From IMG/VR virus record IMGVR_UViG_3300022758_000104, positions 1 through 5,761 of that record: a stretch of DNA of 5,761 nt, one strand, 5' to 3'. The translations under genes and the position numbers were made by a program. How positions within the stretch are numbered: the stretch's first letter is position 1; each line of letters opens with the position of its first letter. This document shows positions 1 through 5,761 of the stretch, piece by piece. The notes beneath the pieces are model-generated. The model worked only from the letters and a program-made list of their open reading frames with translations, searched no databases and was not told the DNA's origin. The DNA is from a virus.

Positions 1-698
1 CCATTTTCCTGTACTTGTCTTTGTCGTTTCCGTACAGCTTCTTGGTCACATATCCAGCTACGTAGTTATACGTCTCTGGCGTTGCTTGAGCTATGTCAAC
101 TGTCCCTTGTCCCCAGACTTTGACCAGTTTATCACTCGTGTAGTGTCCAAACCTTGACAGTCTGTGAATTGGCTTTAAGTCGTCTGGACGCCACCCGTAA
201 AGTATCATGTGATAGTGCGGCCTTGAGGTGTTGTCTCCATACTCTCCGGCTAGGAAGTATCTTAGAGGTGCTTTGACGGCCTTTCTGAGCCTTTTCATGA
301 ATAACTGGACATCCTCTACGCTTAAAGTTTGCACCGTTCTAGGACGCTCTGATGCGCCTCTCCATACGTTCACGCCTCCTTTGAAGATTTCCCCTGTTTC
401 TGTGTCCTGTGTTGGTACATGGTCGTCATCATAGGTCAGTGTGATGAACCAGATTCTTTTCTTGTTGTGGCCGTATGCTTCCAGCTCCATTCGTGTAGCC
501 CAGTCTTTGCGTTTGCGTAGCTTGCATCCTGTGCATTGTCCGCACGGTATCATCATTACATCTTTGCGATACATCAGGTCTTCATACTTCATTTTGGTCT
601 TATGTATTTCGTTAAAAGAAGCGAGTGAGTATACTCGCCCACTCGCCTCTCTATCATGAGGTACATAAAACCGGATTAACGGTTTGTTACACCCCCAT
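1..698 (-). CDS. VP4: Replication initiation protein (rolling-circle HUH endonuclease, gokushovirus VP4), N-terminal ~232 codons. It continues across the circular junction into 5301-5692.
   Basis: My translation of the minus strand reads MGCNKPLIRFYVPHDREASGRVYSLASFNEIHKTKMKYEDLMYRKDVMMIPCGQCTGCKLRKRKDWATRMELEAYGHNKKRIWFITLTYDDDHVP...RPHYHMILYGW...YNYVAGYVTKK. This contains the gokushovirus Rep N-terminal Cys cluster (PCGQCxGC), the HUH motif (HYHMIL) and the catalytic Tyr motif (YVAGYVTKK). ATG at 698-696 sits 2 nt after the VP2 stop and has the RBS GGAGGT. That ATG is 1 nt out of frame with the Rep body because of a G5 run at 691-695 (plus-strand C5); a run of G4 would restore MGCNKPL. As given, the first in-frame ATG is at 592-590 (MKYEDL...). 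The frame is continuous with ORF 5301..5741 (-). Confidence 0.85.
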
Positions 699-700
699 TT

Positions 701-1582
701 TTACCTCCAATAATTTCCGGTTGTTCCCATACCGATTGTTTGTCTGCGTCCTCTTTCGAGGTTTTCTGCCGCTTCCCTTCTTACTTTGTCTTGGACAGGT
801 AGGGCCGCGAGCTTTTCTTTCAGATTGATTGCTCCTTCTACTGCCGCTCCGGCAATACGCTCCATATCGCCCTTGAGTCTTACCGGGTTTGTTGTGCTTG
901 ACATGATAGCCTGCTGTATGCTCTCTGCCGCGCTTTCAGCGTGATTCCAGGCTTCACTGTGGCTGCTCCAACTGCCGTCCTGTTTGATGCCCGGCAATGC
1001 TGTTGCGCTCAGAGCGCTGCTGGATGCCATGCCCATGCTTGCGCTGCCGATTGTCCCCTGTGCGCCAGCTGGCGTGCTTGCTCCGCCCTGAGTGTATGCA
1101 AGGATAGGATTAATGCCAGCTTTTTTCATGTCTTCTACAGCTCGCTGATAAGCTGTATTGCTCATTTCCTGTTGCCAAGCTCTGTTTTTGGCTGCTTCAG
1201 CTGAATTGAATCTCATTGCGGTTTGCTGTTCGATGTGGTTATACACGCCTTGCTGGATTGCTCCTAGTGTGTTGTAGCCCATCTGCATAAGCATAGAGTT
1301 TTTGTTAAATTTTTGCTGGCTCCCCATGTTGGCTTGGCTTAGTGCGTTTGCAATGCTTGCAATTTCCTTGTTTACACTGTCGTTTGTACCGCCGTTACTG
1401 AAGCTTCCACCGCTGCTTGTGCTGTTCATCCAGCTGCTCCCGCTGCTCGAACTGTTGGCCTGCCCTGCTTGTCCGTAGCTTGAGCTTGTGCCAAACAGCT
1501 TGTTTGCTGCAACTCCTGCGATGCTAGGTATTGCGTTTAGTGCTAGTGATTTTAAGAATGGTACTAATGCCGCTAATGCCAT
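701..1582 (-). CDS. VP2: Minor capsid / DNA pilot protein VP2 (293 aa).
   Basis: Contains the motif ...[42 protein letters not shown], characteristic of gokushovirus VP2 pilot proteins. The N-terminal part is low-complexity and Ser/Gly-rich. TAA stop at 703-701 is followed 2 nt later by the VP4 ATG. ATG at 1582 follows the VP1/VP2 intergenic hairpin. Confidence 0.85.
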
Positions 1583-1623: not shown

Positions 1624-3289
1624 TTAGTGATGGTCTACGAGACCCGGAATGCTATACATGGGCATAGGTCTCACAGATGTATTGTCGATGATGGTGTCCA
1701 TGATAAACTGAGGCTCGTTGTCCACGGCCAGAGTCCTCTGGATCTCGGAGTCTCCTCCTTCATCCACGTCTGACTCAGGCTTGGAGTCTCTTTATAGTTG
1801 TCTCCGTAGTGCCAGCTGTCCAATGTTCCCTTTGCATTCGAACGGAATTTGCCGCTGATACGGTTAGGCTTCATTCGGTACTCCGCCCCATGGCCTCTTG
1901 ATAACCAAAGGCTTGTTCGTCAGTGCTCGTACCAGTGAGATACAGCTCCTTTTTCAGAATGGCCTGCTCGCCCAGGTTTGCAAACACGGGATAGTAAAAA
2001 TCCAGATTTGTTTTGCGGCTCCACATGCGTTCCAGGCCCTGCTGGTAGGTATGGTCATGCCGGATGCAGCACACACCGATAACATAGCCGTGTTCCTCGA
2101 AACTCTTGGTGAACATACTGCCGTTGTATGGCGTAACGCTCACTGCTGCTGTGTTGCCCTGCGGACTCTCTGCAGTCGTGCCGCTGGTCTGGATGACCTG
2201 ACTCATGTTGATAGTGATGCGCGTGCCGCCCAGATACTCCGGGATTTGTATCGTTTTATCGCTGATTTTCGTGTGAAACAGCGAGTAAATCATCTCGCGG
2301 TAACGACTGCCGCCTCTGGCCAGTTGTTCGTAATATTTTTGAACTTGGAATGCCTGTCGCAGCTGGTTGATGGTCGTTGCCGTAGCGTCTTTCAGATTTG
2401 CACCGAGAAAGTGCATGTTATCTCCTGATGCCATGCTTATGGATCTTCCGTTGTACATGCTATCATATTGGTACGACATTGGCCCCGGCCAGGTGTAGTT
2501 TCCTTCTAACTTTGCCAGTTTTGTTAATTCTCTGTCTTCGTATACTGAGATGTCCGCTGCTTCGCTCATTGGGATTTTCACAGGTTCTCCCGCTTTCTGA
2601 GGGGAAGGCAAAGCCGATGTAAAGTAGTCGTGGTACTTATTTACCGGTAGCGGTCTGCCGCCTGTGTATGCGTTCTGGAGAATATATTCAAGGTCAGGCT
2701 TCGTTGCGTCCATGCCCTTGGTTTCATCATCAGTATAGTTTACGGTTGCATCTTCTTTGCTGTTGACGGCTGGATTGTCCACGTTCTGGTCTCGGAACCA
2801 CTCCTGCCAGATCATGGCGTAGGCTCTAAACGGCAGTGCGTTAACGCTGAATGCGCTGTCGGCTCCTTTGCTCACTTTGGTAGGAATGCCCATGTAGTCC
2901 ATGATGCTTCCCTCGTACGGCGCCGGTTTGTCAGCTGTGCTGGTTACTTTGACCTGCGGAATGGTGTACTCCTGAGTCTGTGCCCACGGCCCGGTGTCGT
3001 TCTCGCCCATAAACCGCTTGAAGTGGTCCCAGATGATACGGCACGGTACGTTGAAGTAGTAAATATCCATGTGGCAGTTGTCCATAACTGGGAAGATAGG
3101 CGTTGTCATACGGATAATTGCGGCCTGGTCGATGCTGAAGGTGTCACCCGGGAGCACTTCATCCACGTAAAACGGAATGAGCTGTCCCGCGTTCATTGTT
3201 AGCTTGACATCCTGTCGACGTTTGAAGCGACTTCGCGTAATGTCCAGGCGCGGGACCTGGTTGAACCCTGCGTCTTTGTTTCTGTTCAT
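1624..3289 (-). CDS. VP1: Major capsid protein VP1 (F-like jelly-roll capsid with a gokushovirus-type insertion loop), ~548 aa if two frame breaks are repaired. As given it is split into three frames: 1871..3289, 1671..1874 and ~1624..1750.
   Basis: N-terminus [51 protein letters not shown] and ...[20 protein letters not shown] are hallmark Microviridae VP1 motifs. A long variable segment follows, corresponding to the threefold insertion loop. The C-terminal continuation [31 protein letters not shown]... is in a second frame (ORF 1671..1874). The final ...[40 protein letters not shown] is in a third frame ending at TAA 1626-1624. ATG at 3289 overlaps the VP3 stop (ATGA), and RBS AGGAGG lies 10 nt upstream. 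Confidence 0.9.
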
Positions 3290-5023: not shown

Positions 5024-5306
5024 TTCAACACTTTTAACACTTTCAACAGGTTTTCCACAAAAAGTTGCACAAATGGTTTTGTGCATATTGCTATACTTTC
5101 AACAATTCAACAAGTTTTCAACAAAATTTTCAACATCAAAATGATTCATAAAATATCGTTCCATGGATAAAAATTTATAGTATTCAACATTTCAACACTC
5201 CCTACTACTGCTACTACAACAAGTAAATAATAAAATAATAAAAATCGTGCGTGCATGTGCGCGATTACGTGCGCGTGCGCGAACGATTCAACAAAATAAA
5301 TCAACA
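5024..5306. repeat. Iteron-like array: at least 9 exact copies of TTCAACA plus about 4 one-mismatch variants. On the viral strand the motif reads TGTTGAA(A).
   Basis: Exact copies on the plus strand at 5024, 5042, 5098, 5106, 5117, 5129, 5183, 5191 and 5287. Variants: tttaaca at 5033, ttccaca at 5053, tacaaca at ~5214, atcaaca at 5300. Several are adjacent pairs. A given 7-mer is expected about 0.02 times in 280 bp. Confidence 0.7.
5244..5283. other. GC-rich alternating purine/pyrimidine tract (cgtgcgtgcatgtgcgcgattacgtgcgcgtgcgcg) inside the iteron region, flanked by A/T runs.
   Basis: Read directly from the sequence. It has Z-DNA-like CG/TG alternation and an imperfect direct repeat of CGTGCG(C/T)G units. 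It is a sharp compositional island within AT-rich DNA. Confidence 0.4.
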
Positions 5307-5761
5307 AAATAAAAAATACTCAGCCAAGTATATATACTTGATAGTTACTTGGCTGAGTGACACCAGAGCTAAAAAACGCCCCTTTGCTTTGGACATCTTC
5401 TTCTTCATGGCTGCTTCTTTATCGGCTAGTTGTTCGGCATACTGTTTGTCAGTTTCCATGTTTCTTTCAATTAGGGACGCGATGGCTTTTTCTTGTCGAT
5501 ACTTCTTAATTCTCCACGCCTTTTCAGGATTTTCTGCTTCCAGCTTTCGCCAATAATATTCTGGAATGGCTGCTCTCTTGCCGTTTGTCAGCTGGATGTA
5601 CCCCTGCTGCCAGAGTCTTTCTTGGTTCTTCTGGAACCATTCGTCTCCGAGTCCTGGCTTTCGGCTCATTACGCAGAATGGCGGTATGAGTCCCATTTTC
5701 CTGTACTTGTCTTTGTCGTTTCCGTACAGCTTCTTGGTCACATATCCAGCTACGTAGTTAT
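5301..5761 (-). CDS. VP4: Replication initiation protein VP4, C-terminal part. Bases 5693-5761 duplicate 1-69; the stop codon is at 5303-5301.
   Basis: The ORF track protein ...KLYGNDKDKYRKMGLIPPFCVMSRKPGLGDEWFQKNQERLWQQGYIQLTNGKRAAIPEYYWRKLEAENPEKAW... matches the conserved C-terminal region of Microviridae Rep proteins. It is in frame with the N-terminal part across the 5692/1 junction, giving about 362 aa in total. The last ~25 aa (RFLALVSLSQVTIKYIYLAEYFLFC) are translated through a terminator hairpin and may be artefactual. Confidence 0.8.
   Translation of the reverse strand, partial: NYVAGYVTKKLYGNDKDKYRKMGLIPPFCVMSRKPGLGDEWFQKNQERLWQQGYIQLTNGKRAAIPEYYWRKLEAENPEKAWRIKKYRQEKAIASLIERNMETDKQYAEQLADKEAAMKKKMSKAKGRFLALVSLSQVTIKYIYLAEYFLFC
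5311..5357 (-). terminator. Intrinsic terminator after VP4: a 12-bp stem (CTCAGCCAAGTA/TACTTGGCTGAG) and 15-nt loop, followed by UAUUUUUUAUUUUGUU.
   Basis: Minus strand reads CTCAGCCAAGTAactatcaagtatataTACTTGGCTGAGtattttttattttgttga. The stem is at plus 5319-5330 and 5346-5357, and the U-tract is at 5303-5318. It overlaps the annotated VP4 3' end. Confidence 0.6.
5693..5761. repeat. Terminal redundancy: an exact 69-bp duplicate of window positions 1-69. It is an artefact of linearising a circular genome, not a biological repeat.
   Basis: Direct comparison of the two window ends shows identical strings: ccattttcctgtacttgtctttgtcgtttccgtacagcttcttggtcacatatccagctacgtagttat. Confidence 0.95.

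Follow-up and report, generated by a model that had tools for sequence, protein, structure and literature searches.

Where does the replication initiator gene (Rep, VP4) of this virus begin, and is the frame break at its start a property of the genome or of its sequence record? In the window, i.e., the whole 5,761-nt stretch that was analysed, a well-placed ATG opens only three codons, and the long Rep frame lies one base out of step with it. Positions 1-69 and 5693-5761 form an exact direct repeat, so the window represents a circular molecule of 5692 nt that is terminally redundant by 69 nt; it is the entire genome of a gokushovirus (Microviridae) from the human gut. All genes are carried by the minus strand in the order VP4, small ORFs, VP5, VP3, VP1, VP2; they were named by profile searches and by tblastn with annotated relatives. 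The order VP4-VP5-VP3-VP1-VP2 is that of human-gut Gokushovirinae (PMC3394797), whose organization (one strand, circular, about 5.5-5.9 kb) is matched by the window. The nearest GenBank records belong to gokushoviruses from human, monkey, and pig gut, with 81-84% nucleotide identity.

Rep crosses the circular junction, running from 698 to 1 and then from 5692 to about 5369, and since it spans the junction, ORF lists made on the linear window miss it. The reading frames concerned are the following.

1582-701, minus strand: ORF of VP2 (DNA pilot protein), 293 aa, with a match to the pilot protein family phrog_8742 (E=7.8e-96)
1-695, minus strand: body of Rep (VP4), residues 2 to about 233 (PF23343; phrog_942)
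5369-5692, minus strand: C-terminal third of Rep; the true stop after repair is TAG at 5371-5369

With the VP4 proteins of relatives as tblastn queries, Rep residues 2-339 are covered at 88-90% identity. VP2 has only 50-74% protein identity to relatives with 88-90% identical VP4, and just upstream of the Rep ATG the nucleotide similarity to most relatives ends abruptly. This pattern suggests that VP2 may be a hypervariable or exchanged module with its boundary at the VP2/VP4 junction.

On the minus strand, the VP2 stop/Rep start site reads GGAGGTAAAAATGGGGGTGTAA, spelled ...GGA AAT TAT TGG AGG TAA AA ATG GGG GTG TAA CAA ACC G..., and contains the following elements, to which the first canonical start farther downstream is added.

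703-708, minus strand: Shine-Dalgarno sequence GGAGGT for Rep, in the last VP2 codons, with 5 nt from GGAGG to ATG
701-703, minus strand: VP2 stop TAA, read from the sequence
696-698, minus strand: true Rep (VP4) start ATG, 2 nt past the VP2 stop; the homologous VP4 start in all relatives examined
692-696, minus strand: G5 run (plus-strand C5) with one G in excess; the nearest relative has G4 (ATG GGG TGT)
687-689, minus strand: TAA closing the spurious 3-codon ORF ATG GGG GTG TAA, a product of the extra G
590-592, minus strand: internal in-frame ATG, M36 (MKYEDL...), the first canonical start of the Rep frame as given

The initial annotation had placed a strong ribosome-binding site and an ATG at 698-696, 2 nt past the VP2 stop, and both can be read directly on the minus strand; the sequence also confirms its statements that this ATG opens a 3-codon ORF and that the Rep frame is open from 703-701. 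Its coordinates for the C5 run (691-695), however, are off by one: the run occupies 692-696 and ends with the C that corresponds to the G of the Rep ATG. The Rep body sits in the VP2 frame (+1 to the ATG), is open directly past the VP2 stop, and encodes KWGCNKPLIRFYVPHD.... In relatives within IMG/VR, the distance from the VP2 stop to the VP4 start is typically 0-2 nt. The arrangement around ATG 698-696 is not due to chance, because all relatives examined have VP4 annotated or called from this same ATG.

The most informative relative is the ENA scaffold NIEL14-1_SAMEA2042112_METAG-scaffold_3411 (ERZ28623529; hereafter L006), which was found via its identical VP5 protein. Over 996 nt comprising the VP2 end and Rep, it shares 99.5% nucleotide identity with the window, and the extra G is the sole indel in this comparison. 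L006 reads GGAGGTAAAAATGGGGTGTAAC, i.e., G4, and has an intact ORF starting with MGCNKPLIRFYVPHD.... GGAGGT is identical in L006 as well, and other relatives have a purine-rich GGAGG- or GAGAGG-like sequence in the same place. All 35 N-terminal residues of the repaired Rep are identical in L006, and the 2 proteins are 100% identical from residue 1 to a 19-nt insertion that L006 carries near the C-terminal end; the stretch before this insertion contains 2 substitutions, both silent. Thus, the earlier prediction that reading the run as G4 yields MGCNKPLIRFY... holds: this is the VP4 N-terminus of the nearest relatives, and L006 really has G4. The insertion in L006 itself (about 1244-1262, corresponding to about 5445 in the window) is a 19-nt partial duplication (CAGTATGCCGACGTCTTGC) that breaks the C-terminus of that Rep and is probably another assembly artefact.

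More distant genomes agree. Five annotated GenBank genomes begin VP4 with ATG GGA TGC AAT AAA CCG, on or next to the VP2 stop. The first 29 Rep residues (MGCNKPLIRFYVPHDREASGRVYSLASFN) are common to MG945657, KT264788, KT264789, KT264790, PV067914, and the repaired window. At the nucleotide level, the window differs from these five by 3 synonymous changes (GGA>GGG, TGC>TGT, and AAT>AAC) and one extra G. Across ten distinct DNA relatives, VP4 starts at the homologous ATG with ATGGG(A/G)TG(C/T), and the Logan contig L009 likewise has ATGGGGTGC. A degenerate scan of IMG/VR, which accepted either the in-frame or the +1 version of the site, matched 60 genomes; all matches are in frame, with 54 GGA and 10 GGG (a natural G4) at codon 2, and the +1 version appears in 0 of the 60. 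In all, it is absent from about 70-75 related genomes from GenBank, ENA, JGI, Logan, and IMG/VR. Exact-pattern scans for the window's own junction, with either G4 or G5, gave no match in IMG/VR or JGI metagenomes. Searches for proteins exactly identical to VP2, VP3, or the truncated VP1 of the window were likewise negative, and VP5 alone led to related contigs.

The segment upstream of M36 has the properties of coding sequence in the frame of ATG 698. According to a comparison with ten distinct relatives, the 35 N-terminal codons in the repaired frame show 77 synonymous vs 6 nonsynonymous codon differences, which indicates that this frame is under purifying selection. In a set of 120 representative Rep homologues (52-96% identity), the M-x-C-x-x-P start is found in 117, two more have the motif after a short upstream extension, and the remaining one has an intact ORF whose start was miscalled by the gene caller. 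The M-x-C-x-x-P-L start of gokushovirus Rep proteins, which the initial annotation had named, is therefore borne out by these homologues, and in the window such an N-terminus at the ATG beside the VP2 stop appears only once one G is removed. Near-invariant Rep residues in this part are M1, C3, P6, R9, Y11, P13, and G20. The phrog_942 (replication initiation protein) match begins at residue 1 (residues 1-335, E=2e-112), and the AlphaFold2 model of a 94% identical homologue (P0001) has residues 1-40 predicted as structured (pLDDT 73-88).

A 270-aa Rep call (P0002) was considered as a second N-terminally broken Rep and rejected. Its DNA (L008; JGI 3300045988 Ga0495776_013534, positions 834-1855) is intact: Rep is called there from M70 by a gene-caller mis-start, though the 339-aa ORF from ATGGGATGC is unbroken. 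Truncated Rep N-termini in databases can thus be gene-calling artefacts.

The start of Rep is not its only break. A second one, missed by the first reading of the sequence, lies at the other end of the gene.

5379-5382, minus strand (AAAGGGGCG): second extra G in Rep, G4 vs G3 in 13/13 relatives

This lesion shifts the frame 3 codons before the Rep stop and removes the stop, and the ORF runs on to 5301. The result is a spurious 23-residue tail (RFLALVSLSQVTIKYIYLAEYFLFC), with translation passing through the terminator hairpin. Read as G3, the end becomes AAG GGC GTT TTT TAG, i.e., KGVF*, which is the exact C-terminus of relatives, and the repaired Rep has 339 aa, as do almost all homologues. 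An earlier candidate explanation of this lesion as T6 vs T5 was dropped, the alignment showing G4 vs G3. Just past the true Rep stop, an inverted repeat at 5318-5358 (arms of 18 nt, 89% complementary) is followed by a coding-strand T-run and looks like a terminator; its arm sequence CTCAGCCAAGTA...TACTTGGCTGAG is kept in all relatives.

VP1 is broken at two further sites.

1886-1893, minus strand: VP1 break 1, two single-base duplications, GCCATGGGGCGG vs GC-ATGGG-CGG in 12/12 relatives
between 1756 and 1755, minus strand: VP1 break 2, one base missing, GAAGGA-GGAGAC vs GAAGGA[A/G]GGAGAC in 12/12 relatives

Break 1 adds one C at 1892-1893 and one G within 1886-1889, truncating VP1 at 472 aa. 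An initial description of this site as an extra A plus an extra G, derived from relatives of 81-84% identity, was replaced, as closer relatives show an extra C and an extra G. Altogether, +C, +G, and -1 distribute the VP1 C-terminus over three frames, and the shifted pieces keep 89-98% amino-acid identity to relatives. Repair of both sites gives a protein of 554 aa, which is the length of the three best database matches (93-95% identical). No other assembly contains the truncated VP1 product.

In total, the contig has four break sites with five single-base indels, two in Rep and three in VP1: G4->G5, G3->G4 twice, C1->C2, and the deletion of A or G at GGA|GGA. None of the five is common to any relative (12-13 relatives were checked for the Rep 3' end and VP1 lesions). 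They can confidently be corrected by deleting one C each from 692-696, 5379-5382, and 1886-1889 and one G from 1892-1893, and by inserting one base between 1755 and 1756. The initial annotation had counted the Rep start as the third homopolymer-linked frame disruption. That several breaks exist is correct; their number, however, is higher, and not all of them are classic homopolymer errors.

What, then, produced the extra G? Comparison with related sequences favours a base-calling, consensus, or assembly error, to which we assign a probability of roughly 0.84. A systematic technical error is suggested because the five indels fall in the two most conserved genes, show neither decay around them nor recurrence elsewhere, and are biased to G-runs. 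All four break sites lie at coding-strand G-runs, which make up 26% of the runs of at least 3 bases in coding regions (P about 0.004), and the sequence outside the lesions shows no sign of decay, with a Rep protein identical to that of L006 up to the latter's 19-nt insertion and out-of-frame VP1 segments 89-98% conserved. The earlier attribution to an error-prone platform is well supported, if only circumstantially. The pattern does not fit a classic long-homopolymer error: the affected runs have 1-4 bases, and they include one C1->C2 change and one GGA|GGA deletion; moreover, another G5 run (plus-strand 1613-1617, non-coding, after VP1) reads as in relatives. VP2, VP3, VP5, and the small ORFs are intact despite many A/T runs, and for this reason the error process would be G/C-biased and possibly local. 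The competing view that all five indels are real mutations in a defective, non-viable genome, either short-lived or complemented by co-infecting wild-type phage and caught by chance in the assembly, appears unlikely. The lesions are, after all, present in the sequence as given, ssDNA phages mutate fast, and viromes contain defective genomes; L006, with its own Rep lesion (the 19-nt duplication), also demonstrates that broken Reps do occur in assemblies, whatever the cause. However, five frame-breaking indels would then have to have arisen independently in the two most conserved genes of a genome whose Rep has zero nonsynonymous differences from L006 and whose out-of-frame VP1 segments are still conserved. 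The G/C bias suits a technical process better than random mutation, and no lesion recurs in about 75 related genomes, with the truncated VP1 missing from other assemblies.

Two further explanations take the sequence at the Rep start as correct. According to one of them, a truncated Rep would be made from the internal ATG at 592-590 (M36), which is indeed the first canonical in-frame start and leaves all three catalytic HUH motifs downstream. We regard this as extremely improbable. The sequence preceding M36 (ACATAAGACCAAA) has no Shine-Dalgarno sequence, and position 36 is leucine in 110/120 homologues, which means that no alternative start is conserved there. As the initial annotation had stated, a start at this ATG would lack a ribosome-binding site and cost 35 conserved residues; these are also predicted to be structured, include C3, P6, R9, Y11, P13, and G20, and are encoded by codons under purifying selection in the frame of ATG 698. 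An M36 start would also destroy the putative zinc-binding module discussed below. According to the other explanation, Rep would be produced by recoding, with a +1 ribosomal frameshift on AUG GGG G or polymerase slippage on the G-run yielding MGCNKPL... at a reduced or regulated level. A slip of the glycine tRNA from GGG to the overlapping GGG is geometrically possible and gives the exact conserved N-terminus, and the 0-frame stop follows two codons on. Against it, the +1 configuration is found in 0/60 IMG/VR genomes and 0/14 other relatives, and the nearest strain has a plain ORF. In AUG GGG GUG UAA, one codon intervenes between the slippery codon and the stop, the GGAGG located 5 nt before the AUG has normal initiation spacing, unlike the prfB stimulator, and G5 is too short for efficient slippage. 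Recoding also cannot explain the four other frame breaks of the contig, including the double insertion. For gokushovirus Rep, a literature search turned up no account of either recoding or homopolymer artefacts. This explanation, too, has a negligible probability. The broader statement that G5 is real and Rep is expressed by low-efficiency +1 slippage on AUG GGG G, either ribosomal or transcriptional, is very unlikely; if true, it would mean a recoding-based throttle on the rolling-circle initiator of a microvirus. A related reading, a true multiply-defective genome kept by complementation in the gut, is likewise unlikely.

In the preferred reading, that of a technical error, ATG 698-696 is the real Rep start and has a GGAGG Shine-Dalgarno sequence to itself. 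Counted from the last base of this ATG, the run should comprise four Gs, the fifth putting the start out of frame. Judging from the anatomy of the site, translation of Rep is probably coupled to that of VP2, because a 2-nt gap between stop and start and a GGAGG inside the VP2 end are the usual coupling arrangement.

The non-coding region downstream of Rep has several features of its own. The heptamer TTCAACA occurs in 9 copies on one strand within 5024-5293, often as doublets 8-12 nt apart; the whole window has 10 copies where about 1.06 are expected, and a count of 10 was attained in 0 of 200 shuffles. Such an array looks like iterons and might serve as an origin or as a binding region for a protein. 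A tandem 13-mer (TCAACAAAATAAA) is present twice at 5288-5313. The otherwise AT-rich non-coding region is interrupted at 5250-5282 by a GC-rich block in which purines and pyrimidines alternate (CGTGCATGTGCGCGA / CGTGCGCGTGCGCGA), and relatives have similar GCGCACGC stretches in its place.

The frame break at the Rep start is a sequence-quality and annotation problem, not new biology, and it would become the latter only if reads prove the lesions real. The practical consequences of the lesions concern annotation: automatic annotation would start Rep at M36, add a false 23-residue tail, and cut the capsid protein 82 residues short, and protein databases would take up these truncated or extended products. 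The VP2-stop/VP4-start junction combined with the invariant MxCxxP N-terminus provides a reliable anchor for the annotation of gokushovirus Rep.

As for known systems, the closest one is L006, which represents the same virus at strain level and has the same Shine-Dalgarno sequence and the same TAA-AA-ATG junction. In contrast to the window, the runs at the start and the 3' end of its Rep are G4 and G3, respectively, which leaves both ends of the ORF intact at these points; the 19-nt partial duplication within its Rep is its own, and the scaffold spans only 3.7 kb, without the VP1 C-terminus. Gokushovirus WZ-2015a (KT264788-90), Microviridae sp. MG945657, and Gokushovirinae sp. PV067914 have a 339-aa Rep of 88-90% identity and the same gene order. 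They differ in codon 2, which is GGA and reduces the G-run to G3, and in a divergent VP2 (50-74% aa identity), with similarity lost upstream of the Rep ATG. Concerning recoding, the +1 frameshift of prfB (RF2) relies on a slippery codon directly before the stop and a Shine-Dalgarno sequence 3 nt upstream of the slip site, and is conserved across species. The context here (GGAGGTAAAAATGGGGGTGT) resembles it in having a codon able to re-pair in the +1 frame and an upstream Shine-Dalgarno sequence; in contrast, none of the adjacent stop, the 3-nt spacing, and the cross-species conservation holds for the window.

Finally, the repaired protein can be compared with the Reps of other Microviridae. 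Judging from its motifs, it is a superfamily I HUH rolling-circle initiator: the match to PF23343 has E=4.3e-18 and 65.9 bits (cut-off 27.8), and the window encodes FITLTY (motif 1), HYHMILY (motif 2, HUH), and YVAGYVTKK (motif 3). In a 68-sequence alignment, the invariant residues are F84, T86, T88, Y89, H161-Y162-H163, Y212, Y216, K219, and K220. A search of PDB sequences identified no solved relative of Rep, and the N-terminal module matched no solved structure in PDB or by Foldseek; the fold matches reported by Foldseek are non-significant and consistently point to HUH Rep nuclease domains. The protein shares FxTLTY, HYH, and YVAGYVTKK with two tyrosines (Y-x3-Y, then lysine) with the superfamily I HUH Reps of Microviridae (phiX174 gpA type; PF23343, PHROG 942). 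In contrast to the gpA-type proteins, gokushovirus Reps have an additional module at the N-terminus, which is about 60 residues long and contains four cysteines, C3, C52, C55, and C58 (about 690-688 and about 543-523 in the window), one in MxCxxP and three in PCGQCxGC. These cysteines are invariant across 68-120 homologues and may form a zinc-binding module.
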